64,000 nt of DNA from assembly GCA_947307295.1 (NCBI GenBank), contig CAMZIQ010000002.1, positions 80,621 to 144,620 on the forward strand, read 5' to 3'. This DNA is from an uncultured Pseudomonadota bacterium (GTDB lineage: Bacteria; Pseudomonadota; Alphaproteobacteria; Rs-D84). Shown piece by piece: positions 1-23,123 of the stretch. Made by a program: the position numbers and the translations under genes. The first letter of the stretch is position 1; the number at the start of each line of letters is the position of its first letter. The notes under the pieces are model-generated. The model had not been told where the DNA came from. It saw only the letters and a program-made list of their open reading frames with translations, and did no database searches.

Positions 1-367
1 CACAGATTCAAAAATAACAGTTAAATTTTTTGTGCCCTTTAAAATTTTCATAACAGATTCATGATAAAAATCTCTGTCTATTTGTGCGCGCAAAGCCTGG
101 GTAGCAGCGCCATGCGTGGCGTTAAGGGTTCGCCAATGAATACCCGAAGAATCCGCTGCATTTGGCATAACACCACCGAATACAGCCATTTCGGCAACCA
201 TTTGCGATTTTCCTGGTCCACCGATGGATGGATTACAAGACATCGCACCTATATCACTTTCGCGCATGGTTAATAACAATGTTTTTGCGCCACGACGTGC
301 AGCGGCTGTTGCAGCTTCAACACCCGCGTGTCCACCACCAATAACAATCACATCATAGTTTTTCATT
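1..367 (-). CDS. mnmG: tRNA uridine 5-carboxymethylaminomethyl modification enzyme MnmG (GidA), N-terminal ~122 aa only; gene runs off window start
   Basis: Reverse complement of 300-367 reads MKNYDVIVIGGGHAGVEAATAAARRGAKTLLL (FAD GxGxxG N-terminus typical of MnmG). No stop before the window edge, so it is absent from the ORF track. The antisense ORF 61..273(+) is spurious. Confidence 0.85.
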
Positions 368-370
368 TTT

Positions 371-1096
371 CTAGAATCGTCCCATACCACCATTGATATG
401 AATAGTTTGTCCGTTAATATATGATGCTTCATCACTTGCCAAAAATACACAAGCATTTGCAATATCCACAGGTTCACCAAAACGACCAGCCGGAATTTGT
501 TCAAGATATTTCTTTTTCAATTCTTCTGGCAAAACATCTGTCATAGGTGTTTTTATAAAGCCCGGAGCAATCGCATTTGCCGTGATTCCACGCGAAGCAA
601 CTTCTGCGGCAATAGATTTTGTCATCGCAATAATTGCGCCCTTAGATGCGGCATAATTTGTTTGACCTGCACCACCAACAACGCCAACAATGGAAGCCAT
701 ATTTATAATGCGACCACCTCTTTGTTTCATCATAGGCATTAAACACGCACGACAAAGTTTAAAAGTTGCGCGCAAGTTCGTATTCAAAACATTGTCAAAT
801 TGTTCATCAGTCATACGCATCATCAAAGTATCTGCTGTAATACCGGCATTATTAATCAAAACATCAATACGCCCTGCTTTTTCAATGGTGTCGGTAATCA
901 ATTTTTCTGCTGCGCCTTCTTGTGATAAATCAGCCGCGATTTTTATATAAGAATCATCAAACCCAGCAAGTTTTTCCGTGCTGCGTCCAGTCACAACAAC
1001 CTTTGCACCTGCTTCTTTCATCTGTTGTGCGATTGCGCCACCAATACCGCCTGTGGCACCTGTGATTAAAACAACTTTGTCTGTTAAATCGAACAT
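371..1096 (-). CDS. fabG: 3-oxoacyl-[acyl-carrier-protein] reductase FabG
   Basis: TGATGGIGGAIA cofactor motif, NAG, and YAASKGA catalytic Y-x3-K of the SDR family. Adjacent to fabD. Confidence 0.9.
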   Translation of the reverse strand: MFDLTDKVVLITGATGGIGGAIAQQMKEAGAKVVVTGRSTEKLAGFDDSYIKIAADLSQEGAAEKLITDTIEKAGRIDVLINNAGITADTLMMRMTDEQFDNVLNTNLRATFKLCRACLMPMMKQRGGRIINMASIVGVVGGAGQTNYAASKGAIIAMTKSIAAEVASRGITANAIAPGFIKTPMTDVLPEELKKKYLEQIPAGRFGEPVDIANACVFLASDEASYINGQTIHINGGMGRF

Positions 1097-1098
1097 GA

Positions 1099-1383
1099 TT
1101 ATCCCTTTTGTGTTGAATTTATTTCTTTTAAATATTTGTTAATTATATGTTGTGTTTTAGTATGTTGATTGTGTGGTATAACCAATGTAATTTTATTAAA
1201 AGGCATTTTAACATTAGTGTGCAAAATATTCGCTAAATTTATCGCTGCTTTTGATGCATCATCTATGCCAATACCTTTTGCTACATCAAATTGTATATAC
1301 TGTTGTGGATATACATAATAAACATAGGTGCCTATAAATCTACCCAGTTCATCGTGATAAACATAATCATTCTTTCCCAACAT
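1099..1383 (-). CDS. hypothetical protein (94 aa) between fabD and fabG
   Basis: ORF in operon position. No recognisable motif (not ACP). Confidence 0.35.
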   Translation of the reverse strand: MLGKNDYVYHDELGRFIGTYVYYVYPQQYIQFDVAKGIGIDDASKAAINLANILHTNVKMPFNKITLVIPHNQHTKTQHIINKYLKEINSTQKG

Positions 1384-1385
1384 AT

Positions 1386-2261
1386 TTATATCTCTAATTT
1401 TTCTGTCCCTATTTTATCGGTTGTGCGCGATATTAAACCCGACAGCACATTCCCGGGTCCAATTTCAATCGCCTTTGTAATGCCCAGGTTTACCATTTCC
1501 AAAACACTTTCACGCCAACGAACACCATGTGTTAATTGATAAATAAGCGCTTCTTTGATTTCATCTGGATTTTCAATAACAGTACAAGTTTTATTAGAAA
1601 TCCATTTTGATTTTGGTGTTTCAATTTTAACTTTTTCAAATTCATGGCGCATAATTTCGACTGATTTTTCTTGGGCGCGACAATGAACAGGTGCGGAAAG
1701 TGCCAATGGCATAACGCGTCTTGCACCCAATTCTTTTAATTTTGCCGTTGCCATTTCTACTGGTTCTTTAAGGCCTGAAATAACAACCTGACCCGGACAG
1801 TTATCGTTCGCCATATCGCAATCAGATTCTGCACAAACAGTACGTACTGTGTCGGCATCCAAACCCAAAACCACAGATGTTAAACCCATACCAACGGGAA
1901 CAGATTCTTGCATCGCATTTCCGCGTGCGCGCAAAAGGCGCGCAGTATCTGCCAAACTAATCGCGCCAGCAACACAAAGTGCGGTATATTCACCCAAACT
2001 GTGTCCAGCGACAAATTCTGGAATTGGTAATCCACTTGCCCGAAACATAGCAATTGATGTTGCCATAATCGCAGGTTGAACATTTTTTGTTAAAGTTAAT
2101 TCTTCCATTGGTCCATTGAAAATTATATTTGATAATTTTTCATTCAATGCTTCATCAACTTCGTCAAACACAGCACGCGCAGCAGAGTTGTTTTTATAAA
2201 GTTCTGCGCCCATACCAACAATTTGAGCACCTTGACCAGGAAAAACATAAATAGTCGACAT
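1386..2261 (-). CDS. fabD: malonyl CoA-ACP transacylase FabD
   Basis: GHSLGEYTAL active-site serine motif. Length 291 aa. Confidence 0.9.
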   Translation of the reverse strand: MSTIYVFPGQGAQIVGMGAELYKNNSAARAVFDEVDEALNEKLSNIIFNGPMEELTLTKNVQPAIMATSIAMFRASGLPIPEFVAGHSLGEYTALCVAGAISLADTARLLRARGNAMQESVPVGMGLTSVVLGLDADTVRTVCAESDCDMANDNCPGQVVISGLKEPVEMATAKLKELGARRVMPLALSAPVHCRAQEKSVEIMRHEFEKVKIETPKSKWISNKTCTVIENPDEIKEALIYQLTHGVRWRESVLEMVNLGITKAIEIGPGNVLSGLISRTTDKIGTEKLEI

Positions 2262-2321
2262 TTTTGACCTTTTTATTCGTTTGGTAAAATTATAGAAAAT
2301 TAAACAAAAAAAGCAAATTTA

Positions 2322-2861
2322 TTATTTGCGCAAAGAAAATTCGCAACCACAGTAATTTTGGCGATAAAATTCAAGTTCACGGTTAATTTCTTGACGCAAT
2401 TGTTCGTTCCATTTAATTGGCAAATATTTTATATCTTCGCAAGACTCGTTCCCCGCACAGTCAACTTGGTTTTGGTCTTTGTGACGCGACACACCGAACA
2501 CACTCGCAATCGCGTTAAAGCCGTGTTTTTTGGCGTATTCGCGTGCCCAGCAAAAACGATAAGCAAAACATTTACTGCAACGCGCGCCACGTTCTGGTTC
2601 GTTTTCCAGACCACAAACAGCCTTTCTCCAATCATCGTGATTATAATCACCAATTACATATTTTACACCCAATTTTTCACAGTATTTTATTTGTTCGTTT
2701 AATCTTTTTTGATATTCTTCTATGGGAAAAATATTAGGATTAAAAAACATAACTATAAATTCATCTATGCCTGGAATTTCGCCGTATACGAGTTGTTTAA
2801 TAGCACCGCATGAACATGGTGCACAACAAGACATTAAAATAAGTTTGGTTTTATCTGTCAT
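2322..2861 (-). CDS. queH: epoxyqueuosine reductase QueH (DUF208 family)
   Basis: N-terminal CCAPCS cysteine cluster and size (~180 aa) typical of QueH. Confidence 0.7.
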   Translation of the reverse strand: MTDKTKLILMSCCAPCSCGAIKQLVYGEIPGIDEFIVMFFNPNIFPIEEYQKRLNEQIKYCEKLGVKYVIGDYNHDDWRKAVCGLENEPERGARCSKCFAYRFCWAREYAKKHGFNAIASVFGVSRHKDQNQVDCAGNESCEDIKYLPIKWNEQLRQEINRELEFYRQNYCGCEFSLRK

Positions 2862-3390
2862 GGCTTATTTCAAACAATTTTCTTAAAACAACAGGTGCAC
2901 GTTTTGTTGCATTTGGCCAAATTTGTTGCAGTTTTTTATCAACAACAATATCTATGTCATTCAATGGACGCCAAATAATAGTAGGTTTATCTTGGCCAGA
3001 TGGAAATAACCTTGCTTCCACAATAGCGGGCGCATTTTTAAAATCAGAACCATATCTTAATTTATCAAAATCATAGGTTGTGCCAAATTTCTTTTCTAAC
3101 CATTTTTCAATATCAAATGGTGTCCAAAATTTATCAATGACTTTAAAGTAGCTTGTATGTGTTTCGTTATAGATACTTTTTGTTCCGTTCATTAAATTAT
3201 CAACACGAAAAACATTGATTTCGTAAAAGTTTTTATCACCATTACGCGCGGTCTTTTCGACATCAGTATTTGCCACAAATGCTTTGATGTCAGATAACGA
3301 TTTAACATCTTGTCGTTTATACCAAAAATCTTCACCAGGATGCATAAAATACATTTCCGTAGCCCAATGAAGTTCTTTATTCAAAGCCAT
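2851..3390 (-). CDS. hypothetical protein (179 aa)
   Basis: ORF between queH and metG on the same strand. No motif recognised. Confidence 0.4.
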   Translation of the reverse strand: MALNKELHWATEMYFMHPGEDFWYKRQDVKSLSDIKAFVANTDVEKTARNGDKNFYEINVFRVDNLMNGTKSIYNETHTSYFKVIDKFWTPFDIEKWLEKKFGTTYDFDKLRYGSDFKNAPAIVEARLFPSGQDKPTIIWRPLNDIDIVVDKKLQQIWPNATKRAPVVLRKLFEISHDR

Positions 3391-3392
3391 TT

Positions 3393-5024
3393 TTATTTAT
3401 CCTCTTTTTCAGCCAATTCTATTCTGTTAAATAAATTTTCTGGGACAACAAATTTTTCGTTCGTTTTGATACGATGTTCGTATTTTGTTGGCCAAGATAA
3501 ATCATGTTTATTTTCAAATATATTTTGCATTTTTTCTGCGGCGTCTGGAATAAAAGGCGCTGATATACGTGCAAACAAATCTATCATTTGAAAACATTCA
3601 TTTAACGCACGTGCAGCCCCATTTGTGTCACCGTTTTTAACCAATGCCCAAGGTTCTTTGACGGTCATATATTCATTAGCAATCGCCCACAAAGAACGTA
3701 GTGCAAATACAGAATCTCTGAATTCACATTTTTCCATCGCATTTGTTAAATCAGATAGTTTTTCGTCTATTCTGTTTGCCAAATCTTCATCAATGCCATC
3801 ACCGTTTGGGACGATGTCGCCGAAATTTTTCGCGGACAGTTTGCAAACACGTGATACGAAATTACCAAGCATACCATTTAAATCTTTATTTACCACATCA
3901 GCAAAACGTGCCATTGTAAAATCTGTATCATCAGTTTCTGGTGCAGAAGACATTAAAGCGTATCTCCAACAATCACTGGGTGCTATATTTAATGCTTCGT
4001 CCAAAAATATTCCGTTTCCTGTTGATTTTGCGACTTTGCCACCTTCAAAATTTAAAAAATTAACAGCCTTTAATAAATCTACTGTTTTCCAGTTATCGTG
4101 CATTGCTAATTCTTGTTCTGGGAAAAACACAGAATGGAATTTAACGTTGTCTTTACCCATAAATTGTGCATAAAAACAATCTGGGTTTTTCCACCAAGAC
4201 TCCCAATCTTTATTTGCTGCCTGGGAAATGGACACATATCCCCAAGGTGCATCAAACCAAACATAAAAAACCTTGTTTTCATATCCAGGCTTATTCACAG
4301 GTATTCCCCACGACAAATCGCGTGTAATGGATGTATCGTGTAATCCTTCGTTTGCCCAACCCATAGCGATAGCAGAGGCAGTTTTTGACCATTTTGGTGC
4401 ATGTTCTAATAACCATTTACGCCATTCATCTTGCATTTTTGATGCCAGGAAAAACAGGTTTTTTGTTGGTCTCATTTCGATATTTGTTGAACCAGAAATT
4501 GTAGAGTGCGGATTTTTTAATTCTGTTGCTTCGTATGTGGCACTGCAATTATCACATTGGTCACCGCGCGCCTTTTCATAACCACATTTTGGGCAAGTCC
4601 CTTCGAGTTGTCTGTCTGCCAAAAACATATTATCATCTACAGAAAATGGTTGAACAGTTTCACGTTCTTCAATTAAACCTTGGTTTTCAAGACGAATAAA
4701 TAAATCTTGAACTAATTTTTCCTGTAATTCAGTATGTGTGCGACCATATAAATCAAAAGACAATTTAAAATCAGATACAGCACGCAAATGTTTTTCATAG
4801 TATTTATCAGTATATTCTTTGATGGGGATATTTTCTTTTGCTGCACCAACAATAGCAGGTGTTCCATGTTCGTCTGCGCCACAAACATAAAGCACATCAC
4901 GACCCATCGCGCGACAGAATCTGGCGTATACATCGCTTGGCAAATAACAACCAATTAAATGACCGATATGTAATTCACCGTTTATATATGGTAATGCAGA
5001 AGTGATTAAATATTTTTTTCCCAT
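3393..5024 (-). CDS. metG: methionyl-tRNA synthetase (short form without C-terminal tRNA-binding domain)
   Basis: HIGH motif (ELHIGHLIG), Zn knuckle CPKCG/CDNC, and KMSKS-like KVAKSTGNG. Confidence 0.95.
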   Translation of the reverse strand: MGKKYLITSALPYINGELHIGHLIGCYLPSDVYARFCRAMGRDVLYVCGADEHGTPAIVGAAKENIPIKEYTDKYYEKHLRAVSDFKLSFDLYGRTHTELQEKLVQDLFIRLENQGLIEERETVQPFSVDDNMFLADRQLEGTCPKCGYEKARGDQCDNCSATYEATELKNPHSTISGSTNIEMRPTKNLFFLASKMQDEWRKWLLEHAPKWSKTASAIAMGWANEGLHDTSITRDLSWGIPVNKPGYENKVFYVWFDAPWGYVSISQAANKDWESWWKNPDCFYAQFMGKDNVKFHSVFFPEQELAMHDNWKTVDLLKAVNFLNFEGGKVAKSTGNGIFLDEALNIAPSDCWRYALMSSAPETDDTDFTMARFADVVNKDLNGMLGNFVSRVCKLSAKNFGDIVPNGDGIDEDLANRIDEKLSDLTNAMEKCEFRDSVFALRSLWAIANEYMTVKEPWALVKNGDTNGAARALNECFQMIDLFARISAPFIPDAAEKMQNIFENKHDLSWPTKYEHRIKTNEKFVVPENLFNRIELAEKEDK

Positions 5025-5282
5025 GTGTCTATTCCTTTGATTTTAAAATAAATGCGCCGTCACGGGCGCATGAATTTGTTCCCGCAATATTTTGATAAAG
5101 ATTATTTGTACATTCGCATTTATCTAACTTTTACTTATTGGTGTCTTTTGTCCGCCTTCGCTATTTTTAATCGCGTTTTATGAATACTAGTACATATTTG
5201 ACCTTTTTCCGCTGAACACACAGCTACGGCGAGACACTCGATTTTCTTAATTGTGCGCGCAGCGCGCAATAACGAAAATCAG

Positions 5283-5359
5283 TGGTGGGTGGTATTGGGC
5301 TCGAACCAACGACCTCCACGATGTCAACGTGACGCTCTAGCCAACTGAGCTAACCACCC
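5283..5359 (-). tRNA. tRNA-Val (anticodon GAC), CCA encoded
   Basis: Reverse complement folds as a cloverleaf: GGGTGGT acceptor, D-arm TAGCTCAGTTGGCTAGAGC, anticodon stem TCACG/CGTGG with loop TTGACAT, T-arm GGTCGTTGGTTCGAGCC, then ACCACCC-A-CCA. The 5' half is supplied by the left att repeat of the integrated element. Confidence 0.9.
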
Positions 5360-5364
5360 AAAGC
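5317..5364. repeat. att core copy 1 (attL; equals the 5' half of tRNA-Val(GAC) plus 5 bp)
   Basis: Exact 48-bp direct repeat. Forms part of the intact tRNA. Confidence 0.85.
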
Positions 5365-5370
5365 CACTGA

Positions 5371-5398
5371 ATTATAACATCTAAATTCTAGAATGCAA
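5371..5398 (-). promoter_or_regulatory. element-borne sigma70-like promoter for tRNA-Val (TTGCAT-16-TATAAT on the minus strand)
   Basis: Minus strand reads ttgcat-N16-tataat, ending 11 nt before tRNA +1. A homologous native promoter (TTGCAA-16-TATAAT) sits beside the orphan att copy at 23535..23562. Confidence 0.45.
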
Positions 5399-5511
5399 AT
5401 AAAATCGCTTTTTTTTGCTTTGGTGGCTTTTAGATATAATTTGCTATAGCATCCCCTTTTCACCTACAGTATACTCTAGAGCATGCTCCAAATATGCTCC
5501 TAAATGGTGTT

Positions 5512-5721
5512 TTAGTAGTGTTTATTGGCAAATTTATCTATTCTAATTCGTTTTCCCCATGAATTTACAACAATAACATCTTCACCACTATGAAAAACAT
5601 CACGAGGTTTGTGGAATTCGAGTCTTCGACCACCAATTTGTTTGACTATTACATCATCGTCTTTCCAACGGTATCTCAAATTGCTTTTTGTTTGCATGTT
5701 TAAACCTCTTACTATGATCAT
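5512..5721 (-). CDS. hypothetical small protein (69 aa) at the element left end
   Basis: ORF conserved in both element copies. No motif recognised. Confidence 0.35.
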   Translation of the reverse strand: MIIVRGLNMQTKSNLRYRWKDDDVIVKQIGGRRLEFHKPRDVFHSGEDVIVVNSWGKRIRIDKFANKHY

Positions 5722-5823
5722 TAGAACTAAATTTGGTGCAGATTTTTACCATAAAAGGAATAAAAACACACATTTTAGAGTATAAATATTGTGTAAACAC
5801 TGTTTTCGTGTTATAATTGCTAC

Positions 5824-6975
5824 ATGTTTTATGATGTACAACCGATTCAGAATAAAGAAGACTATAAAAGAATGTTGACTCTTGTAGGTCAGCTTTCGAA
5901 TCTTTTTTCTGAGAGCGATTGTCCTTATTTATCTTACAGGGCTCATGAAAATATATTTTGTAGATTTTTGGGAGCAGAGAATTTAGCCAGATCTGATTGT
6001 TCTGCTGATGCCAAGAAAGATAAAGTTGGTGTTGGTTTGAAAACGTGGATGGGTAACAATGATCAGAAGGTTGCAGAATTTGGGCGTTTGAAGAATAGTT
6101 ATGCTAGTCTTTCTGGAATTGAATTAGTAAAGAAAATAGCTGAATACAGGAATGAACGCATCAGAATTACAAAGAGGTTACATGGATTAGATTCTATGAT
6201 ATACCATGTTGTAAAACGTGTTCCCGGAGCTATGCAAATTCTTGAGGGTGTGTTTGACGAGATAAATATAGAAAACATCACATTATTATCAAACACTGGG
6301 AACGATAACAACACATACTTTACTGATGGAAAACACAAATATCATTTTAGCACATCAAAAAACACTCTGTATATGATATTTGATTTTCTTGAACAGTTGG
6401 ATTCTTTTGAGGTAAAAATATTAGAAAATCCTTATGAATGGTTGTCGAAAGCTACAGATAAAAAAACTATTTCCAAAGACATCAAGAAAGTTGTCAAAGC
6501 TATACAAGAGGAATCAGCAAGAAAACCCCAATTATGTTTGAGATTATATTCGGTAAAGAAGGGTGAAAGGTTTGTTGCTGAGAAGAGTGGTTTAAATCAG
6601 TGGAACGCATCAGGAAGAGCAAGGAATCCTAATGAGTTATATATACCATACCCTAAGGAAGACAGAGACAGAATTCCTAATTTCTTTCCACCAAGAGACA
6701 CACCTTTTACACTACATTTGCCAGATGGTACAGCTATTTCTGCTAAAGTGTGCCAAGCAGACAACAAGGCTATAATGAGTAATCCTAACAGTTTATTGGG
6801 CAAATGGCTTTTGCGAGATGTGTTTGAATTGCCAGATAATACTTTAGTAACATATCAAATGTTAGAAAGGTTTGGTATAGATAGTGTGATTTTCACTAGA
6901 AATGCAGAATTAGATTATTCCGTAGAATTTTCAGAATTGGGCACTTATGAACGTTTTTATGAGATTGAAGACTAA
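5824..6975 (+). CDS. candidate Type II restriction endonuclease (383 aa) directly upstream of the C5-MTase
   Basis: Context only: co-oriented and 45 bp upstream of a Dcm-type MTase on a mobile element. No unambiguous PD-(D/E)xK motif. TATAAT (5812-5817) ends 6 nt before the ATG, suggesting a leaderless transcript. Confidence 0.45.
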   Translation: MFYDVQPIQNKEDYKRMLTLVGQLSNLFSESDCPYLSYRAHENIFCRFLGAENLARSDCSADAKKDKVGVGLKTWMGNNDQKVAEFGRLKNSYASLSGIELVKKIAEYRNERIRITKRLHGLDSMIYHVVKRVPGAMQILEGVFDEINIENITLLSNTGNDNNTYFTDGKHKYHFSTSKNTLYMIFDFLEQLDSFEVKILENPYEWLSKATDKKTISKDIKKVVKAIQEESARKPQLCLRLYSVKKGERFVAEKSGLNQWNASGRARNPNELYIPYPKEDRDRIPNFFPPRDTPFTLHLPDGTAISAKVCQADNKAIMSNPNSLLGKWLLRDVFELPDNTLVTYQMLERFGIDSVIFTRNAELDYSVEFSELGTYERFYEIED

Positions 6976-7017
6976 AAGAGTTTTTGGTTTTTTTATTTTA
7001 TTTTTTTTTGTTTTATT

Positions 7018-7035
7018 TTATTGCGGCGTGCCGCA
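7018..7035. promoter_or_regulatory. perfect palindrome ATTGCGGCGTGCCGCAAT between the R and M genes (attenuator or operator candidate)
   Basis: 8-bp arms ttgcggcg/cgccgcaa, preceded by a long T-rich tract and followed by tttat. A TAAAAT -10-like box and RBS aggag for the MTase lie downstream. Confidence 0.35.
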
Positions 7036-8067
7036 ATTTATGATAGAGTAAAATATGGTTACAGACACAGGAGTTTAAATATGTATACAATAGCATCGTT
7101 TTTTGCCGGTGTTGGTGGCATAGACTTAGGTTTTGAACAAACTAATAAATGCAAAACAATCTATGCTAATGAGTTTGATAGTTATGCAAGTGAGACGTTT
7201 GAAAAAAATTTTCCCGATGTCAAAGTTGATCAACGAGATATACATGATGTGCCTGAAAAAGATATACCAAATGTTGATATTTTTATAGGCGGTTTTCCAT
7301 GTCAGGCATTTTCTATAGCCGGCTACAGACGTGGCTTTGAGGACGAGAAAGGTAGAGGAAATTTGTTTTTTGAGCTTGTTCGTATGATGAAGGCAAAAAA
7401 ACCTCGTGTTGCGTTGTTTGAAAATGTAAAAAATTTAGTTAGCCACGACAAAGGGAATACGTTTCGTGTGATTTGTAATGAGTTGGAAAAATTGGGTTAT
7501 TATTATACATATCATGTTTTGAATGCCATGGATTATGGGAATATGGCTCAAAACAGGGAACGTATATATATAGTAGCATTCAAAAATAAGAAAGATTTTA
7601 TAAAATTCAAATGGGCGAAGACGGTACCTCTAACAACAACAGTAAAAGATATTATAGATTTTACTAAGAAGGTAGACGATAGATTTTATTATACAAAGGG
7701 AAAATACAAGGGTGATATATATGAAAGGCTTGTTGAAGCTACAAAAGGTGACGATCCTAAAAATCCGGCAATATACCAATGGCGTAGAAAATATGTTAGA
7801 AAAAACAAAAGTGGAGTGGTGCCAACTCTAACAGCTAATCAAGGTGAAGGTGGTCATAATGTTTGTATTGTAAAAACAAAATATGGTTTGAGAAAAATGA
7901 CCCCTCAAGAATGCTTTAATACCCAAGGCTTTCCAAAAACGTTTTTGTTACCAAAGCAAAGCGATGCACGTTTATATAAGCAGGCTGGCAATTCTGTTTG
8001 TGTACCGGTTATACACAATATAGCAGAAAACATAGTAACAGCTTTGTCTGACGGCGAAGATAGCTAG
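7021..8067 (+). CDS. DNA (cytosine-5)-methyltransferase, Dcm/HhaI-like; true start probably ATG at 7081 (MYTIASFF) after RBS aggag
   Basis: Motif I FAGVGG, motif IV GGFPCQAFS, motif VI ENVKNL, motif VIII QNRERIYIVAF, motif X GNSV. Short TRD (~328 aa total) as in M.HhaI and M.HaeIII. Confidence 0.9.
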   Translation: MRRAAIYDRVKYGYRHRSLNMYTIASFFAGVGGIDLGFEQTNKCKTIYANEFDSYASETFEKNFPDVKVDQRDIHDVPEKDIPNVDIFIGGFPCQAFSIAGYRRGFEDEKGRGNLFFELVRMMKAKKPRVALFENVKNLVSHDKGNTFRVICNELEKLGYYYTYHVLNAMDYGNMAQNRERIYIVAFKNKKDFIKFKWAKTVPLTTTVKDIIDFTKKVDDRFYYTKGKYKGDIYERLVEATKGDDPKNPAIYQWRRKYVRKNKSGVVPTLTANQGEGGHNVCIVKTKYGLRKMTPQECFNTQGFPKTFLLPKQSDARLYKQAGNSVCVPVIHNIAENIVTALSDGEDS

Positions 8068-8224
8068 AGCTCTTAGTGCGTAGCTGAGATTGTGTAATTA
8101 TTGCAGGCACAACAAAAACTTGAAAAATGTAAGTAACGTGGTATATTTAATGTGAGTACTCGTAAGTGTGCTTGTGACATTAGATAGCGGAACGGGTTTG
8201 ATCACCCAAGTACTAGTCTAGATA

Positions 8225-8346
8225 GTGTCCCAACCGAATGGTTGGGATGCCTTGTGCTATACAATAGGTCTTACCGACTAAAAGCCTTGGGGTTCTGTAC
8301 TTGAATTGATCAACATCCCAACCGCCTAATAAAGCGGTTGTTTTTT
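8225..8346 (+). repeat. divergent copy (C) of a CCAACC-N-GGTTGG leader-like repeat ending in hairpin aaccgc-ctaataaa-gcggtt plus T-run, immediately 5' of the Nuc-like gene
   Basis: Same architecture as repeats A (23624..23816) and B (40478..40660): an internal palindrome cccaaccgaatggttggg, about 85 nt, then ccaaccgcc-loop-gcgg plus Ts. Confidence 0.5.
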
Positions 8347-8871
8347 ATGTTGAAAGCTACTGGATGTTTTTTGTTTTTGATTCTTATATTTGAATTGGTT
8401 GCATGTAATCAAAATGCTATACAACCAATTCAAGAAAACCATAATGATATAAAGATATTTTTTACTCCCGGCACAGAATGTGAAAATAATATTATTGAAA
8501 GAATAAACCAATCAAAAAAAGTGGACATAGCTGTTTATTCAATTACAAACCCTGCTATTACAAAGGCTATTATTTCTGCATATAAACATGGGGTAAATGT
8601 AAGAATTGTGACAGATAAAACACAAGCATCAGGAAAAAAATCATTAGTCTCTCAAATACGTGCTGCCGGAATACCTGTTTTGACTAATAAAAAACACAAG
8701 ATAGAACATAATAAGTTTGCTGTTTTTGACGATGTACATGTTGTTTCTGGATCTTATAACTGGACAACAAACGCAACCAACTATAACAGTGAAAATTGCC
8801 TATTCTTTGATCAACCAGACATGGAATATTCTAAAAGATTTGAGTATCTATGGAAGGTTTATAGTGAATAG
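8338..8871 (+). CDS. Nuc-like phospholipase-D-family (HKD) endonuclease with lipoprotein signal peptide; start likely ATG at 8347
   Basis: HNKFAVFDD HxK(x4)D motif followed by SGSYNWT (PLD/Nuc family). N-terminus MLKATGCFLFLILIFELVAC has the lipobox LVAC. Size ~175 aa, as for pKM101 Nuc. Confidence 0.8.
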   Translation: MFFMLKATGCFLFLILIFELVACNQNAIQPIQENHNDIKIFFTPGTECENNIIERINQSKKVDIAVYSITNPAITKAIISAYKHGVNVRIVTDKTQASGKKSLVSQIRAAGIPVLTNKKHKIEHNKFAVFDDVHVVSGSYNWTTNATNYNSENCLFFDQPDMEYSKRFEYLWKVYSE

Positions 8872-8872
8872 C

Positions 8873-10558
8873 CTAGTAGTATATTTTAAATCCATCGTCT
8901 GTACCCAACTCTTCTATCACATTTTGTATTCTTTTTATTGTTATTTGATCTACTGTTTGAAATCCTGCTTTGCCTTCTATGGATTTTGGATCAACTTTTT
9001 CTGGTATCTGAGAGACGATAAAGTTGAAATTTGTACCTTCTTGTTTGTTTTTTAGCAAGCAGGCATGACTAACTACAGATGCTCCACCATACATCTCAAA
9101 TATCACCCCGGATCGTTGCCCAATAAGATCCAAAAGCATAGTTATAAGTTTTACCGGTTTTTTTGATCCACTAAATGATATATGACCTTCATTTTGTAGT
9201 GTTGATTTAGTGTCTGAAACATCCCATATATCACCTAAAATAACAGAATTTTTCAAGGATCCATCTTCTTGTTTTATAAGGCTATCGCTAAAACGCAAAT
9301 ATAAGGCGTTTTTAGAGCCTTTTTCTAGTAACTTGCCCTTGTACTCGAATATAGGGTCTAAATCGTCTCTATGGGCATAAAAAACGCTTTTATAAGCATT
9401 TGATTTGGGGTAAACAGCTTTGTATAGGTCTTTTGCTATAGTATTGTACATATAATGTTTGAATTCTGGCTCTATTTTGATCATTTTTTCTATGTTTTTA
9501 GATAATAGTTCCATGTTGTGCTTTTTGAATAAGTTTATTATATGAGGTTGCTGTTTCAGGTGGTCAATCAAATATATTTTTTCGTGCACTCCAAAAGTCG
9601 AATTTGGTTTTTTGATAAGATGCTTAAAGGAGTTTTGCCAGTAAGTACTAGATGGAGTGTATAAACGTTGCAGGTGATTTACTTTTGATTTGTCTTTTGC
9701 ATATACTAATAAATAGGATTTTAGTCCGGGTAATCTGTATTGAGTCCTAGATACAATAATAGATGCAGGGGTGCTTGTTTTTATGACGATGTTGTTTATA
9801 AAGTTTTCTCTACCGTATACAGAATCCATAAGCACTTTTACATACGCCATTTCGTGCTCACTTACAGATAGAGCAACAAGTCCGTCTGGTTGAAGAAGTT
9901 TTTTTACTAATTCAAGGCGAGGAAAAAGGTGCTCTAAAAGCTGGCACGTTCCGTCAAATGAAGAATTATATGCTAATACAGCTCTGTTTGATGGCATGTT
10001 AAAGGGTATGTCCCCGTATGCAAGTAACAGTTTTCCTGAGTATTCTGGTAAGAGCCATTTACAAGCATCTATATTATCTTTCACTAGAACAAGATTTTTA
10101 GATTTTTCATTATTTGGTAAGGAGTTGAAAGATTTGTTTGGGTGAAATTTGACTTTTGTTGGAGTGTTTGTTAGTTTTTCTGCCCTTTCTCTTCCATTAA
10201 AGTATAGAAATAGTCCGTTTTTGTTTTGTGTTTGTGTGGTGTTGTTTTTAAAGTCTTCTAGCGATCCAATTATTCCTTCGTATCTATACAGTTGCCCCCA
10301 TTTTTTACCATTTTCAACTTTGCTTATAATTCCGGTGTTGCAGAGAAGTTTGAGTGTGTTGGTGATGGTTGGTCTTGGGATTTTTGTTTGTTTGCATAAA
10401 GTTGTGATGTCGAGTTGAGGGGTTTTGCAAAAAGTATCAAATATGGCTAATGCTGTGTTTTTTGATCTACCAATGTTTTCTATTTTTGCTCGATCTGTAG
10501 ATATAATTTCTGTATTGAATGTATTTATTGTTTTTCTGATGGTTTGTTTTTTTATCAT
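8873..10558 (-). CDS. winged-HTH fused to a divergent N6/N4 amino-methyltransferase-like domain (PF01555-like fold with degenerate catalytic and SAM motifs)
   Basis: N-terminal wHTH-like segment AIFDTFCKTPQLDITTLCKQTKIPRPTITNTLKLLCNTGIISK. Motif IV position reads LLLAYGDIPFNMP (DIPF rather than DPPY). Typical post-motif segments: LQPDGLVALSVSEH..., NNIVIKT, YLLVYAKDKSK. C-terminal motif I position reads GVIFEMYGGASVV rather than VLDPFxGSGTT. Confidence 0.65.
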   Translation of the reverse strand: MIKKQTIRKTINTFNTEIISTDRAKIENIGRSKNTALAIFDTFCKTPQLDITTLCKQTKIPRPTITNTLKLLCNTGIISKVENGKKWGQLYRYEGIIGSLEDFKNNTTQTQNKNGLFLYFNGRERAEKLTNTPTKVKFHPNKSFNSLPNNEKSKNLVLVKDNIDACKWLLPEYSGKLLLAYGDIPFNMPSNRAVLAYNSSFDGTCQLLEHLFPRLELVKKLLQPDGLVALSVSEHEMAYVKVLMDSVYGRENFINNIVIKTSTPASIIVSRTQYRLPGLKSYLLVYAKDKSKVNHLQRLYTPSSTYWQNSFKHLIKKPNSTFGVHEKIYLIDHLKQQPHIINLFKKHNMELLSKNIEKMIKIEPEFKHYMYNTIAKDLYKAVYPKSNAYKSVFYAHRDDLDPIFEYKGKLLEKGSKNALYLRFSDSLIKQEDGSLKNSVILGDIWDVSDTKSTLQNEGHISFSGSKKPVKLITMLLDLIGQRSGVIFEMYGGASVVSHACLLKNKQEGTNFNFIVSQIPEKVDPKSIEGKAGFQTVDQITIKRIQNVIEELGTDDGFKIYY

Positions 10559-10577
10559 GGTACGCTCTCTCTTGAAT

Positions 10578-10604
10578 CATTATTTTTTATAGCAGAAAAT
10601 AATG
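10578..10604. promoter_or_regulatory. 9-bp-stem inverted repeat cattatttt-N9-aaaataatg 20 bp upstream of the MTase-like gene
   Basis: Perfect inverted repeat seen directly. Lies in the divergent intergenic region between the MTase-like gene (-) and the AlpA-like gene (+). Confidence 0.3.
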
Positions 10605-10692
10605 AATAATGCCAATCTAAAAAAAATAACAAAGTATACATTTTTATCATAATTTTGAGTTCTAATATACATACAAAAAAGGATCTATACTA

Positions 10693-10875
10693 ATGCTAAC
10701 AAAACCAGAATTCACACAAGAAAAACTATTGACGGTTACAGAGGCAGCTAATATTTTGAATTTAAAACCTTCTACCTTATACCGTATCAAACAAAATGAA
10801 AGGTCTCCCAAAAAGGTCAAAGTTTGTGGCAGGCTTTATTTTACTCTTTCTTCTATAAACAACATAATGGGCTAA
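10693..10875 (+). CDS. AlpA-like HTH DNA-binding protein (prophage regulatory / excisionase family)
   Basis: LLTVTEAANILNLKPSTLYR helix-turn-helix and the GRLYF / SINNI C-terminal pattern of the AlpA family. RBS aagga 8 nt upstream. Convergently overlaps the 3' end of the Rep gene by ~100 bp. Confidence 0.65.
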   Translation: MLTKPEFTQEKLLTVTEAANILNLKPSTLYRIKQNERSPKKVKVCGRLYFTLSSINNIMG

Positions 10876-11709
10876 TCTCTTTTCTAATATCTTTCTCAAT
10901 TTGTTTATGGGGTTTGGTAAGAGTAATTCGCCACGTTGTTTGAGCCATAAAGCAAAGATAATGACGGTTTTCAGTTGCTTTATATCAAAATAATTCACTT
11001 TATGTGGGTTGAATCTCTCTTTGCCAAACCAAGTCTTCATTGTAAACAGCTCACTACCTTCGTTGATATGTGGATCTTCGTTGTCTTTTAATTCTTTGAC
11101 AAGGTAAGCACAAATTCCCTCTTTATCATAAACACATCTCAAATCAAAAACGGTCTTATAAAACTTATATTTATCAACGATTTTACTAATTGCATCACAT
11201 AATCTGTAGCCAATATATTCGTCATGATCTGTACTTTTGAAGAGAATATGAACATGCCACCAAAAATCATTCTTACCATGTTCCATTACACCAACACATT
11301 GTAAAGCGTTTCTAGTCCAATGATTTTTTTGTTCTATGGCAAGAGTTTGAATTTCTTTGAATAATTTTTTATAAGATTTTTTAGCGTCTTCTCTGTTTCT
11401 TGTTCTTCTAAAACCGGATTGGGTGCATCTGGGTAGTTTGATTGTCAAAAGATAAGAATAGTCTTCTTGCATTAGTTGTTTTTGCCAATATTTCCTAGAG
11501 TCTTGATATTCAGTTTGGTGATTCCTATAAAAACCATTCAATTCTTCATTTATCTCATTTGTAAATTTAGACATGATTTCCTCTAGCGTTCTAAACCTTC
11601 TTCTTATTTTCAATCCACGTTCTTCCACATAAAACGTTCTTCTTTTTATTGTTTTACTTAGTTGGGAATGTTGAACATCTAAATTAGAAAATAAATCATA
11701 ACCATTCAT
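10777..11709 (-). CDS. HUH-superfamily rolling-circle Rep / MobT-like relaxase candidate (310 aa)
   Basis: WWHVHILF (HUH motif) followed by Tyr-containing segments (DEYIGYRL, ICAYLVKELK), as in Rep_trans/MobT proteins. Divergent from the regulator gene across a promoter/operator region. Confidence 0.55.
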   Translation of the reverse strand: MNGYDLFSNLDVQHSQLSKTIKRRTFYVEERGLKIRRRFRTLEEIMSKFTNEINEELNGFYRNHQTEYQDSRKYWQKQLMQEDYSYLLTIKLPRCTQSGFRRTRNREDAKKSYKKLFKEIQTLAIEQKNHWTRNALQCVGVMEHGKNDFWWHVHILFKSTDHDEYIGYRLCDAISKIVDKYKFYKTVFDLRCVYDKEGICAYLVKELKDNEDPHINEGSELFTMKTWFGKERFNPHKVNYFDIKQLKTVIIFALWLKQRGELLLPNPINKLRKILEKRLAHYVVYRRKSKIKPATNFDLFGRPFILFDTV

Positions 11710-11971
11710 TTATTACCTTCTTGGTTTACTTTGTTTAATGAATGATCAACACACCTTTTGTTTTGGGTGCTAATCAGTTTGAATCAAAAAGCCCGGATTT
11801 ATAAGGGTTGAAGCGTAATCCAATCCAACAGGAGCGATTTGATTTATTTCCTAGAACTGTTTTTTTTCATAAAGTTGTAAAATTTTTCATTCTTTGTGAT
11901 TTTTTTGAGGAACGATTCGTAAAAAAAGACAAATTCGATACAAAAATAGGTGTTTTTTCTGGCAGGAGGCA

Positions 11972-12029
11972 AGTGTATACACTTTGTGTATAAAAAATAC
12001 TTGACATCGGTACACAAAAAGTGTATACT
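11972..12029 (+). promoter_or_regulatory. switch region: consensus sigma70 promoter (TTGACA 12001-12006, 17 bp spacer, TATACT 12024-12029) with GTGTAYAC operator repeats, including the 12-bp palindrome AGTGTATACACT at 11972-11983
   Basis: Sequence read directly. Operator-like motifs at 11972-83, 11986-93, 12008-15 (inverted) and 12019-29 overlap the -35 and -10 boxes. RBS aaagaggtg then ATG of the HTH regulator. Confidence 0.6.
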
Positions 12030-12058
12030 GTAGCTGTAACAAAAACAAAAGAGGTGTT

Positions 12059-12601
12059 TTGATGGAAAAATATAGAACAAAGTTTGGTACATGGATCTCT
12101 GTATTTTGTGCCAGACATGGATTAAACATCGCAAGGGCTGCTTATGAATTGGGGTTGGCTCCTACTACATTGGCATCTATTGTAGCTGGAAGACATCCTT
12201 TACCGGTGTTCTTGCGTGAAAATATCATAGCGACTTTCGGAAGATATTTGTCCGGAACAGATATTGCCGAAATGGATCAAAGCATTGTTGATACAGAGGC
12301 AGGAGCTGTGATTGTGTCAAGGAACTATAAAAAATACGTCAGTGCACAAACAGTGAATGACAAAGAATGGTGTCTAAAACTGATGGATGTAATGGCTAAA
12401 GCGACCAATAAAATGAACAAGGAGGAATCTGAAGAAATTTATGCTCGTTTGCAAGAGATTGCTGAACGCCCTGCACCAGTATCTATAGAATTAGACAAAG
12501 ATATAGATATTGAAACGCTGAGACAAGATATTCGCAGACGGTATAAAGACCCTGTAAAAACAGAACAAATTGTAGAAAAAATAAAAGAACTGAGACAATA
12601 A
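12059..12601 (+). CDS. XRE/Cro-like HTH transcriptional regulator (element repressor candidate), acidic coiled-coil C-terminus
   Basis: N-terminal HTH WISVFCARHGLNIARAAYELGLAPTTLASIVAGRH. Immediately downstream of the operator-rich promoter. Confidence 0.6.
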   Translation: MMEKYRTKFGTWISVFCARHGLNIARAAYELGLAPTTLASIVAGRHPLPVFLRENIIATFGRYLSGTDIAEMDQSIVDTEAGAVIVSRNYKKYVSAQTVNDKEWCLKLMDVMAKATNKMNKEESEEIYARLQEIAERPAPVSIELDKDIDIETLRQDIRRRYKDPVKTEQIVEKIKELRQ

Positions 12602-12715
12602 AAAATAAAGTGGGTGAACAAGCTGCAACCTGCTCACCCTAACAAACACCAAACGAGTTGGATGTCTGCCACAAAGTCATTTTAGCTCGTTTGGATCAAA
12701 AATCAAGAACCAAAG

Positions 12716-14029
12716 GTGACTAAAATGAGCAAACAAGAAAATATTACACAAACATTAGTAAATAAAATCGTATACAACATCGAAAAAGGCAACACGTCTG
12801 AATTATGTGATGTGTGGGATTCTAAGACATCAGGTTTTGGTATACGAGTTGGCAAAACCAATGCATCTTTTATTTTCAAATATAGAAATAAGGCAAACAA
12901 AGCCCAAACAAAAACATTTGGTAAAATAACCGAAATGTCTGTTGCTGAGGCTAGAAATCTATTGGACGCATTTAAACCAACAATAAAATCTGATCTTGCA
13001 ACAATTCAGAAAACTAATAAGAAATATACGGTGAAAGATTTATGTGAAAAATATCTTGCGGAACACCAAACTCGTGCAACAACGAAAAAACAAGACGAAA
13101 GCAGGATTGAAAGACACGTCTTGCCAACACTTGGCAACATACCATTACATTTATTGACAGCTAAAGATATTATGAATGCACAAACGGCTATTGCAAACGG
13201 TGATAAAAAAATAATTATAGCAGGACATAAAAACCCAAATAATCCACATTCATATATCAAAGTATCTGGCGGTCAAGGTGCTGCTAAAAGGGTTATGGAA
13301 ATGCTGAAAACAATTTTGAATTTTGCAGAAGACGAAGAGTTGATTGAAAAAAATCCTATGAATTCTCGTAAATTCAAAAAAATCAAATACGATAAAAAAG
13401 AAACAGCGTATCTCGAAAACAACAATTATGAAAATCTTGGTTATTTGTTGAAAAAGCATGAACAGCAATCAAAGAAAAGCAATCAAAGTGTGTTGTTTAT
13501 AAAATTATTGGCTTTGACGGGCTGTCGTAAAGGTGAATTATTAGGTCTTACTTGGAATCGAGTAGATTTTACCAACCAATATTTTGTGTTTGCTAAAACA
13601 AAAACTACAGGGGAACAAAAACGATATTTTGGATCTGCAGCAAAAAGATTATTGTTAGATATGCACCAAAAAGCTACATCCAACTACTTGTTCCCTAGTA
13701 TTACAAAAACAGGTACACATAGAAAAGATTGTTTGAGAGCTTTAAAGCAGATTTGTAAAACAGCACAAGAAAACAAAAGTCAATTTGATGCAATACAAAA
13801 ACTAACCCTACATGGTCTTAGACATTCATTTTCAACAATGTGTAACACCCTCTCTTTTCCCGATGTAATTAGAGAAGGACTTATGGGGCACAAGAATGGT
13901 GGTGTACAATATATTTATACACACAATACACATAACACAATGATTGAACATGCAGATAAAGTATCAGAAAGTATCAACACGTTGTTAGATACGGGATGTA
14001 AAAAAGCAGAATTGGAAAACAACAACTAA
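12716..14029 (+). CDS. int: tyrosine recombinase / phage integrase (P4-like, DUF4102 N-terminus); start possibly ATG 12725
   Basis: Box I LTGCRKGELLGLTWNRVD (Arg), box II HGLRHSF (H-x-x-R), and catalytic Tyr in HKNGGVQYIYTH. Adjacent to the tRNA att site. Confidence 0.92.
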   Translation: MTKMSKQENITQTLVNKIVYNIEKGNTSELCDVWDSKTSGFGIRVGKTNASFIFKYRNKANKAQTKTFGKITEMSVAEARNLLDAFKPTIKSDLATIQKTNKKYTVKDLCEKYLAEHQTRATTKKQDESRIERHVLPTLGNIPLHLLTAKDIMNAQTAIANGDKKIIIAGHKNPNNPHSYIKVSGGQGAAKRVMEMLKTILNFAEDEELIEKNPMNSRKFKKIKYDKKETAYLENNNYENLGYLLKKHEQQSKKSNQSVLFIKLLALTGCRKGELLGLTWNRVDFTNQYFVFAKTKTTGEQKRYFGSAAKRLLLDMHQKATSNYLFPSITKTGTHRKDCLRALKQICKTAQENKSQFDAIQKLTLHGLRHSFSTMCNTLSFPDVIREGLMGHKNGGVQYIYTHNTHNTMIEHADKVSESINTLLDTGCKKAELENNN

Positions 14030-14041
14030 AGAGGTAAAAAA

Positions 14042-14263
14042 ATGAAATTTATAACAGAAAGAGAATTAGCTAAATTTTTATCGAATGAATATGGTTTGCC
14101 AACATCGAAAAAATCATTAGAAAAATTACGTGCAAAAGGTAAAGCACCAAATTTTAGAGTTTGGGGTGGAAAAATTGTATATGAAAAGCAAGATGTACAG
14201 ACATGGCTCAACAATCAAATGGCGATTTGTTACAAGTACACAATGCCAAAATATAGCATATAA
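14042..14263 (+). CDS. excisionase-like HTH protein (HTH_17/AlpA-Xis family)
   Basis: ITERELAKFL ... NFRVWGGKIVYEKQDVQTWL pattern. Immediately follows the integrase, with RBS gaggtaaaaaaATG. Confidence 0.55.
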   Translation: MKFITERELAKFLSNEYGLPTSKKSLEKLRAKGKAPNFRVWGGKIVYEKQDVQTWLNNQMAICYKYTMPKYSI

Positions 14264-14273
14264 AAAAAGCAAA

Positions 14274-14291
14274 ATGCTCCCAATATGCTCC
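14274..14291 (+). promoter_or_regulatory. pair of ATGCTCC direct repeats 11 bp apart at the element right end (putative integrase/Xis arm-type sites); equivalent pair at the left end, 5483-5500
   Basis: atgctcc at 14274-80 and 14285-91. atgctcc at 5483-89 and 5494-5500. Same orientation and spacing (one helical turn) at both arms. Confidence 0.35.
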
Positions 14292-14340
14292 AAAATGATA
14301 AAAACCACAAAACTAACACAAACACTAGAGAATCAAAAAA

Positions 14341-14367
14341 CCCCGGAAATCCGGGGTAAATCTTTTT
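14341..14367 (+). terminator. Rho-independent terminator after xis (ccccgg-aaat-ccgggg then T-run)
   Basis: Hairpin and tctttttgtt read directly. Last feature before att. Confidence 0.5.
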
Positions 14368-14398
14368 GTTGGGGGGCTAAAATCTTCATAACGAATTT

Positions 14399-14446
14399 CA
14401 CGATGTCAACGTGACGCTCTAGCCAACTGAGCTAACCACCCAAAGC
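14399..14446. repeat. att core copy 2 (junction between the two element units; partial tRNA-Val 5' half)
   Basis: Exact 48-bp direct repeat. Preceded by the element right end and followed by the element left end. Confidence 0.85.
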
Positions 14447-14593
14447 CACTGAATTATAACATCTAAATTCTAGAATGCAAATAAAATCGCTTTTTTTTGC
14501 TTTGGTGGCTTTTAGATATAATTTGCTATAGCATCCCCTTTTCACCTACAGTATACTCTAGAGCATGCTCCAAATATGCTCCTAAATGGTGTT

Positions 14594-14803
14594 TTAGTAG
14601 TGTTTATTGGCAAATTTATCTATTCTAATTCGTTTTCCCCATGAATTTACAACAATAACATCTTCACCACTATGAAAAACATCACGAGGTTTGTGGAATT
14701 CGAGTCTTCGACCACCAATTTGTTTGACTATTACATCATCGTCTTTCCAACGGTATCTCAAATTGCTTTTTGTTTGCATGTTTAAACCTCTTACTATGAT
14801 CAT
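14594..14803 (-). CDS. hypothetical small protein (copy 2 of 5512..5721)
   Basis: Identical translation at offset +9082. Confidence 0.35.
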   Translation of the reverse strand: MIIVRGLNMQTKSNLRYRWKDDDVIVKQIGGRRLEFHKPRDVFHSGEDVIVVNSWGKRIRIDKFANKHY

Positions 14804-14905
14804 TAGAACTAAATTTGGTGCAGATTTTTACCATAAAAGGAATAAAAACACACATTTTAGAGTATAAATATTGTGTAAACACTGTTTTCGTGTTATAATT
14901 GCTAC

Positions 14906-16057: not shown

Positions 16058-16102
16058 AAGAGTTTTTGGTTTTTTTATTTTATTTTTTTTTGTTTTATTT
16101 TA

Positions 16103-17953: not shown

Positions 17954-17954
17954 C

Positions 17955-21111: not shown

Positions 21112-21140
21112 GTAGCTGTAACAAAAACAAAAGAGGTGTT

Positions 21141-23111: not shown

Positions 23112-23123
23112 AGAGGTAAAAAA

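Follow-up and report, generated by a model that had tools for sequence, protein, structure and literature searches.

B3-like DNA-binding domains are found in restriction endonucleases whose nuclease domains differ in fold. In the Type IIE enzymes EcoRII and UbaLAI a B3-like effector domain is joined to a PD-(D/E)XK catalytic domain, and such fusions show Type IIE behaviour (PMC5766183). Each of these enzymes has one cytosine methylase as its partner, of the C5 or N4 type, and a 5-bp pseudo-palindromic site. R.NgoAVII, R.NgoFVII and R.CglI instead fuse the B3-like domain to a phospholipase D (PLD) nuclease, require a helicase-like N/H subunit and have a C5 methylase partner. GCSGC is the site of M.NgoFVII and M.CglI, and GCCGC is the site read by the B3 domain of R.NgoAVII (PMC4267654, PMC10734518). 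In another Type IIE enzyme, NaeI, an N-terminal PD-(D/E)XK 'Endo' domain precedes a C-terminal DNA-binding 'Topo' domain. Here we describe a restriction-modification (R-M) pair, an endonuclease (R) followed by a C5-cytosine DNA methyltransferase (M), at positions 5824-8067 of a 64,000-nucleotide stretch of alphaproteobacterial DNA. We refer to this whole stretch as the window.

Control of the methylase gene takes several forms in described systems. In CfrBI-type control, a recognition site in the methylase promoter makes expression methylation-sensitive. The SsoII, MspI and EcoRII methylases repress themselves, and the SsoII/MspI type needs an N-terminal arm to do so. Still other R-M systems are governed by a controller (C) protein.

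A preliminary description of the window proposed that a 383-residue open reading frame (ORF), to which it could assign no family, is the cognate endonuclease of a compact C5 methylase carried on an integrase element. We find that 5824-8067 is very probably a functional Type II R-M pair whose endonuclease combines a PD-(D/E)XK domain with a B3 domain. The pair adds to a Type II family that is already catalogued, and it is ordinary biology on a small integrative element. Of use beyond this are the assignment of the endonuclease to PD-(D/E)XK plus B3 rather than PLD, a conserved GCGGC-NN-GCCGC repeat at the methylase gene, and a tandem duplication of the element.

RESULTS

The endonuclease

R and M are separate adjacent genes on the forward strand (Table 1), and R opens with the ATG that the preliminary description had given it. 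The locus holds what is expected of a Type II R-M pair: neighbouring R and M genes, a complete set of methyltransferase motifs and a nuclease domain with conserved active-site residues. R matches the REBASE-derived PADLOC model PDLC03479 ('Type II restriction enzyme') over residues 8-379 (E 3.9e-89). Its C-terminal third corresponds to the Pfam family RE_NgoFVII_C, a B3-like DNA-binding domain (E 4e-13), and its first 190 residues match a second restriction endonuclease model, of 237 residues, that covers the N-terminal domain alone (E 1.6e-30). The family is therefore one that Pfam, PADLOC and PGAP recognize, contrary to the earlier statement. The comparison of both proteins with profile models that had been proposed led from R to a Type II restriction endonuclease model and from M to MTase_II; a match of R to a non-nuclease family was not the outcome.

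Homologues of R form more than 3,400 clusters at 90% identity, mostly of 370-410 aa, spread over Firmicutes, Mycoplasmopsis, Enterousia-like Alphaproteobacteria and others. A few of them carry the name 'NgoFVII family restriction endonuclease'. Searched by themselves, the N-terminal 245 residues retrieved 446 clusters at 50% identity, and lengths were 350-450 aa in most of the 150 listed. Because residues 1-3 (M-F-Y) are at least 90% conserved among homologues, we take ATG 5824 to be the real start.

We built an AlphaFold2 model of R on 45 homologues. Its mean predicted local distance difference test score is 77.9, and most blocks of the N-terminal domain score about 80-94 (range ~70-94). The invariant residues of this domain (Table 1), together with T74 beside K73 and with F166, hold across 79-91 diverse relatives. 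In the model E42 lies in helix 36-49, D62 at the start of strand 63-65, K73 in strand 68-76 and E85 at the end of strand 80-85. As modelled, this layout follows the canonical PD...xK topology, except that the place of the second acidic residue is taken by Gly71 in R and its role has apparently passed to E85, as in the Cfr10I/NgoMIV/EcoRII-C group. Fold comparison places the N-terminal domain closest to the sequence-specific Type IIP/IIE enzymes ThaI and NaeI, and the C-terminal domain closest to NgoAVII-B3.

R departs from each described relative in some respect. EcoRII enzymes have the two domains in the reverse order, and R gives no match to Pfam EcoRII-N or EcoRII-C. Neither NaeI nor ThaI, the latter a single-domain enzyme, has detectable sequence similarity to R, and where NaeI has a CAP-like fold R has a B3 pseudobarrel. 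R shares a homologous C-terminal B3-like domain with R.NgoAVII, R.NgoFVII and R.CglI, but its N-terminal domain is PD-(D/E)XK, not PLD. There is no H-x-K tripeptide anywhere in the protein, no PLD match in Pfam and no invariant histidine in the N-terminal domain; lacking H-x-K, R is not a PLD enzyme. Nor do the ORFs of the element include an ATPase/helicase domain of the N/H-subunit kind (Pfam, NCBIfam, PADLOC and PHROGs). Its database name notwithstanding, R falls outside the NgoAVII/CglI family: a PLD domain and an ATPase partner gene were looked for, and both are absent. RefSeq labels plasmid-borne relatives of R (H47-H52, for example NC_010371.1 and NC_014719.1, the latter our locus L096) as 'restriction endonuclease PLD domain-containing protein'. 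This label probably goes back to the NgoFVII name and has spread as a misannotation.

A putative promoter lies directly upstream of R. As described earlier, its TATAAT (5812-5817) ends exactly 6 nt (TGCTAC) before the ATG, an arrangement that implies an mRNA which may fairly be taken as leaderless or near-leaderless. The layout of -35, TGnTATAAT, 6 nt and ATG is kept in three related loci (L005, L006 and L016) whose R proteins are 77-99% identical to that of the window. A consensus promoter scanner called neither this promoter nor the one proposed below for M, which is too weak for the scanner.

The methylase

M is co-oriented with R and carries the FAGVGG, PCQ, ENV, QNRER and GNSV motifs reported for it. 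It matches Pfam PF00145 (E 8e-86, profile positions 2-323 of 324), TIGR00675 dcm (E 4e-99, 2-329 of 329) and PADLOC PDLC03272 MTase_II (E 1e-115). The mechanical ORF opens at TTG 7021, inside the inverted repeat described below. The true start is ATG 7081, 7 nt after AGGAG: homologues begin at this point, and the match to Pfam sets in at residue 23 of the ORF. Read from this ATG, M begins MYTIASFFAGVGG with motif I (FAGVGG) from residue 8, so that no N-terminal extension precedes motif I.

The protein is compact and has a single target recognition domain (TRD). M.HhaI is its best solved relative (E 8e-57): the two are of nearly equal length (328 versus 327 aa), share all ten-motif landmarks and are about 50% identical in the catalytic domain. 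The TRD (~195-270) had been described as HhaI/HaeIII-sized. It resembles neither of the two: it does not align with M.HhaI and appears not to align with HaeIII. Relative to two Enterousia-type loci (L006 and L016), the methylase protein is 91-93% identical and the endonuclease 77%, so the two genes differ in history or in rate of change.

Linkage of the two genes

We compared the window with 95 loci encoding relatives of R that are 43-99% identical, 606 kb in all. They come from gut Clostridia, Christensenellaceae, a Candidatus Enterousia metagenome-assembled genome, Mycoplasmopsis iners, environmental metagenomes and a Caldicellulosiruptor plasmid. In nearly every locus with enough flank, an orthologous C5 methylase gene directly adjoins R. 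These methylases are 44-93% identical to M, the TRD region included (~residues 2-322), wherever most of the gene lies in the locus. Removal of loci with identical upstream sequence left 70 distinct loci with the methylase start in view. Four gene orders occur among them: M>R> (29), convergent R><M (21), R>M> (18) and divergent <MR> (2). A linkage that survives all four rearrangements speaks for a cognate pair as strongly as any genomic evidence at hand. Together with the full-length match to a Type II restriction endonuclease model and the nuclease-fold model, it bears out the proposal that the 383-residue protein is the cognate endonuclease of M.

The pair is accompanied elsewhere by a very-short-patch repair (Vsr) nuclease or a 'base excision DNA repair protein' (L001-L004, 9261-9704; L096, 6231-6902). 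Such companions are usual; they correct the T:G mismatches that arise by deamination of 5-methylcytosine (m5C). The window's element has neither.

The inverted repeat upstream of the methylase gene

The sequence TTGCGGCGTGCCGCAA (7021-7036) was described as a perfect palindrome between R and M. Its position stands, but it is not a perfect 16-mer: two inverted 7-nt arms flank a centre, GT, that lacks symmetry. Nor is it only an intergenic feature, since it recurs as a conserved element ahead of methylase genes. Among co-oriented loci the R-M intergenic stretch cannot be aligned except for one block holding the repeat and a putative promoter. This block reads TTGCGGCG(T/C)GCCGC(A/G)ATTT.TG.TA in the window, TTGCGGCGCGCCGCGATTTCTGGTAGACT in L001 and TTGCGGCGCGCCGCGATTTATGATAAGT in L006. 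It can be parsed as a -35-like TTGCGG and an extended -10 set 17 nt apart. The pattern TTGCGG...TGnTAnnnT is conserved in the window, L001 and L006, and we propose it as the promoter of M.

How specific is the repeat to this position? GCGGC-NN-GCCGC occurs 24 times in the 606 kb of related loci, against a rough chance expectation of ~0.02. Of these copies, 23 sit 22-53 nt upstream of a methylase start; the 24th, in L033, is at a contig end just past R, and no copy lies elsewhere. The same pair of pentamers at the other spacings from 0 to 10 nt gives 0-1 occurrences, and in the opposite orientation none. The repeat accompanies R proteins of 47-100% identity, and convergent and divergent gene orders have it too. 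In L008-L015, L036 and L064 it follows a TATAAT rather than overlying a -35. None of the 29 M-first operons has it.

The centre of the repeat is GC, GT or AC. Six operators are degenerate, with seven variant half-sites: four read GCWGC (L011, L017, L027 and L050) and three have a broken pentamer (L020, L027 and L041). In L013 one pentamer is intact and the second half is shifted out of register. None of the variants shows compensatory double changes, which points to selection on sequence rather than on pairing. Seven distant, convergent loci (L054, L055, L057, L065, L077, L086 and L091) have coding-like sequence directly upstream of the methylase homology; their methylases may carry an N-terminal extension, perhaps a regulatory arm, in place of the repeat.

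The recognition sequence

What sequence does the pair recognize? The units of the conserved repeat, GCGGC and GCCGC, together make GCSGC. This agrees with the site of M.NgoFVII and M.CglI, and GCCGC with that of the R.NgoAVII B3 domain. The 9,082-bp element has no GCSGC besides the two pentamers of the repeat. Pooled over the loci of carriers alone, the observed/expected ratio is 0.61 for GCSGC (third lowest of 512 5-mer pairs) and likewise 0.61 for GCWGC. This equal depletion, with the GCWGC variants of the operator, makes GCNGC possible as well. A profile alignment of the B3 domain of R to structure 4rd5 (E 1e-4) shows shared EKSxLN, G-R, R267 and E271 positions. The last of these lies opposite residue 241 of R.NgoAVII, which is acidic and, with one other acidic residue, contacts the central C. 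We regard GCSGC, or the looser GCNGC, as an evenly balanced candidate for the recognition sequence. If it is right, the m5C motif of carriers would be one contained in GCGGCNNGCCGC.

Two other specificities were considered and rejected. GGCC came to mind because the element has none and the host flanks hold it at 0.27 times expectation; for the family it is opposed by the pooled carrier loci, where 5-mers that contain GGCC show no depletion, and by a TRD unlike that of HaeIII. Depletion of GGCC is probably a trait of the host lineage. A HhaI-like GCGC specificity is opposed by the unalignable TRD and by the absence of GCGC from the window's operator. A comparison of the TRD with phage genomes, in which we sought the GCNGC TRD of the SPbeta/phi3T multispecific methylases, gave five orthologue-type matches, none of them in a Bacillus phage. 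The literature on GCSGC/GCNGC enzymes of R's architecture offered predictions only (TauI-type in Flavobacterium psychrophilum and Bsp6IM-type in Mycoplasma agalactiae), none of which could be linked to the R family.

The carrier element and its host

The pair was said to lie on an integrase element, and this holds. A tyrosine integrase, an excisionase-like gene and terminal direct repeats of partial tRNA, all expected of a tRNA integrative element, are present, and the integration site is a tRNA-Val gene. Positions 5317-14446 and 14399-23528 are identical with zero mismatches at an offset of 9,082, so the unit is present twice in tandem. Since two related elements, L005 and a 9,097-bp Logan contig, come out of assembly as cycles, the array is either real or the product of an assembler that walked a cycle twice. 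The L005 element is an 8,371-bp, circularly permuted contig. Its R-M module is 95.8% identical to the window's at the nucleotide level while the rest is ~76% identical, which indicates that the module has moved between diverged elements.

The window's element has an insertion relative to L005 just downstream of M, containing a PLD-family gene. This gene is unrelated to the R-M pair, and its predicted signals mark the product as a lipoprotein nuclease that is exported. Of the other loci only L006 and L016 have it, at a different position. The terminator-like hairpin in front of it abuts the start codon, which hints at an attenuator or a riboswitch-like leader; Rfam gave no match.

Further along, 8873-11709 on the reverse strand encodes a 561-aa protein that is winged-helix-like at its N-terminus and has an N6/N4 methyltransferase domain resembling Type III Mod (PADLOC MTase_III, E 8e-43; Pfam N6_N4_Mtase). 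A 310-aa ORF follows, for which Pfam, NCBIfam, PADLOC and PHROGs gave no match. Both proteins are conserved in L005 (63-71% identity), and the region may be a second, uncharacterized restriction or defence module.

In the host flanks (1-5316 and 23529-64000) GATC occurs 16 times against 161 expected and GGCC 20 times against 75. The corresponding figures for the element (5317-14398) are 28 against 27 for GATC, 0 against 9.5 for GGCC and 17 against 7.3 for CCGG. This suggests that restriction pressures of the host lineage are only partly shared by the element.

Table 1. Features of the R-M pair and its carrier element, in window coordinates unless residues are given
Feature	Position	Strand	Details
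Restriction endonuclease gene (R)	5824-6975	+	383 aa; PADLOC full-length match, fold model
R nuclease domain	residues ~1-210		PD-(D/E)XK fold (modelled); invariant E42, D62, K73, K82, E85, N110, K179
R linker	residues 211-235		low model confidence
R DNA-binding domain	residues ~236-383		B3-like pseudobarrel
R promoter, putative	5789-5817	+	-35 TTGTGT 5789-5794, 17-nt spacer, extended -10 TGT-TATAAT 5809-5817
Inverted repeat TTGCGGC-GT-GCCGCAA	7021-7036	.	core GCGGC-NN-GCCGC 7023-7034; 7+2+7; proposed methylase operator
Methylase promoter, putative	7021-7049	+	-35 TTGCGG 7021-7026 inside repeat, 17-nt spacer, TGA-TAGAGT extended -10 7041-7049
Methylase Shine-Dalgarno AGGAG	7069-7073	+	
C5-cytosine DNA methyltransferase gene (M)	7081-8067	+	328 aa; motifs I, IV, VI, VIII, IX, X; TRD ~190-270
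Second identical R-M copy	14906-17149	+	R 14906-16057, inverted repeat 16103-16118 (core at 16105), M 16163-17149
tRNA-Val(GAC), integration site	5283-5359	-	intact
att-like junction repeats	5317-5364, 14399-14446, 23481-23528		~48 bp
Partial tRNA copies	14370-14441, 23452-23523		other two junctions
778-bp insertion relative to L005	8095-8872		promoter-like 8120-8147, ~190-nt structured leader (fold z -2.9), terminator-like hairpin 8319-8340
PLD-family gene	8347-8871 (from ATG)	+	signal peptide, LVAC lipobox, Nuc/NucT-type
Tyrosine integrase	12716-14029	+	Pfam Phage_integrase E 2.5e-19, Arm-DNA-bind_3
Excisionase-like ORF	14042-14263	+	73 aa; phrog_66 excisionase

DISCUSSION

How might R work? 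The EcoRII and UbaLAI enzymes, with the same two kinds of domain and a single cytosine methylase, are the likely working model. By this analogy, which extends to NaeI, R would act in a Type IIE-like manner, a reading to which we give slightly less than an even chance. R would hold one copy of its site through the B3-like domain, as tether or activator, and cut a second copy with the PD-(D/E)XK domain. That a stand-alone 237-residue restriction endonuclease family matches the N-terminal domain suggests that the nuclease domain may be sequence-specific by itself.

A different mechanism, in which the B3-like domain is the sole reader of sequence and the N-terminal nuclease cuts non-specifically at a fixed distance in the Type IIS-like manner of BfiI, NgoAVII or FokI, seems to us unlikely. 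It has real precedent: the B3-like domain is the only recognition module of BfiI and NgoAVII (PMC4267654), and the low-confidence linker of R could be a flexible joint between two such domains. Yet the N-terminal domain most resembles sequence-specific enzymes and has the stand-alone family just mentioned as its relative. A single C5 methylase also suits a palindromic or pseudo-palindromic site, whereas asymmetric Type IIS sites usually need two methylation activities. Far less credible is a split version of the NgoFVII/BfiI design, with the downstream PLD gene encoding the real nuclease and the 383-residue protein serving recognition only. NgoAVII and BfiI do fuse B3-like domains to PLD nucleases, the gene matches PLDc_2 (E 3.5e-25, with HNKFAVFD and GSYN motifs), and in L006 and L016 PLD homologues lie within a few kb of R. 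But its product, with signal peptide and lipobox, is predicted to be exported, its closest families are the periplasmic Nuc/NucT nucleases, and R has a conserved nuclease-fold domain of its own. We reject the PLD gene as a partner: besides its lipoprotein signal, it sits in an insertion missing from the 96%-identical module of L005 and is absent from the other ~90 loci.

The repeat stands just ahead of M wherever M is driven by a promoter of its own, and the module encodes only two DNA-reading proteins and no helix-turn-helix (HTH) regulator. The repeat is thus most simply recognized by M, R or both, and we rate as even the chance that it is an operator read by the module's own proteins. In a new host the unmethylated methylase promoter would run freely; once the two sites were bound or methylated by the methylase, its expression would fall to a maintenance level. 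The leaderless-type start of R would keep nuclease output low, and in M-first operons the device would be unnecessary. Like CfrBI-type control and methylase self-repression, the proposed logic needs no C protein, places the control element at the methylase promoter and exerts negative feedback on M. It differs from CfrBI in having two inverted sites 2 bp apart, in the conservation of the repeat across phyla and in its occurrence downstream of a -10 as well. It differs from SsoII, MspI and EcoRII in that M has no N-terminal HTH extension.

Could the repeat act instead as RNA, as a terminator or attenuator after R or as a stabilizing or translation-modulating hairpin in the methylase 5' untranslated region, unrelated to the recognition sequence? 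The predicted hairpins (-7 to -11.6 kcal/mol) count against an operator. In the window and L008 the hairpin has 7-8 bp and a 4-nt loop at -10 to -11.6 kcal/mol (z ~-2) and is followed by TTTAT; flanking T and A bases are complementary, and three of the seven degenerate half-sites retain G-U pairing. Pairing is nonetheless broken in three variants (L017, L027 and L041), no compensatory covariation is seen, and in two of the four cases folded (L036 and L001) the fold is no better than that of shuffled sequence. The sequence is kept over the whole range of R identities while its flanks diverge, it overlaps the conserved -35/extended -10 arrangement in R>M> loci, and convergent loci have a quite different, classical terminator after R. 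We consider an RNA role rather unlikely. Less likely again, and in our view improbable, is an operator, in the manner of a C-protein box, for a separate regulator, either a small protein of the element such as the 69-aa ORF (5512-5721) or a host factor, with another recognition site such as GGCC. Dyad symmetry is typical of dimeric repressors, and GGCC is scarce in element and host flanks alike. However, the repeat stays with the methylase in different phyla and in neighbourhoods that otherwise have no gene in common (L001 in Firmicutes, L013 in Mycoplasmopsis, L096 of Caldicellulosiruptor type). No HTH ORF is conserved with the module, as it would be in C-protein-controlled systems, and the 69-aa ORF, which has no family, is found only in L005. 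GGCC-containing 5-mers stand at 1.02-1.11 of expectation in the pooled carrier loci, and the TRD, as noted, is unlike that of HaeIII.

Further points weigh against a PD-(D/E)XK-B3 enzyme acting at GCSGC. The second acidic residue of the classical (D/E)XK motif is a glycine in R, and the active site would have to rely on the relocated E85. Against solved nucleases the N-terminal domain gave no significant sequence match, whether as a single sequence or as either of two profiles, so that its likeness to them is structural only; a Foldseek comparison with the PDB recovered the B3 domain and not the N-terminal one. Ser/Met stands where R.NgoAVII has R285, its reader of the central G, and specificity may differ from GCCGC; the loss of R285 would also fit a relaxed or different central base. 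GCSGC is only mildly depleted in the host flanks (0.81), and GCWGC, GGWCC and CCWGG are commonly avoided in any case, which tempers the pooled depletion. Finally, a literature search gave no biochemical or methylome data for the R family, and the characterized REBASE member behind the PADLOC model was not identified.

Taken as a whole, the locus may represent a very widespread, biochemically undescribed Type IIE family of 'reverse EcoRII' architecture, in which a B3 domain of the NgoAVII type follows the PD-(D/E)XK domain. Such a family would regulate itself with no controller, through a universally conserved pair of its own sites, GCGGC-NN-GCCGC, at the methylase gene: a methylation or occupancy switch dropped only in M-first operons. 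We put this picture forward tentatively and with some doubt.

The module would give its host m5C throughout the genome, at a short motif rich in G and C, and protection against incoming DNA, while the element would probably be better retained. The conserved putative operator offers a testable guess both at the recognition sequence and at how methylase and nuclease expression could be timed with no controller. General understanding of R-M systems is unchanged, but these results are useful for annotation, since the family is partly mislabelled in RefSeq, and for the transformation of carriers.

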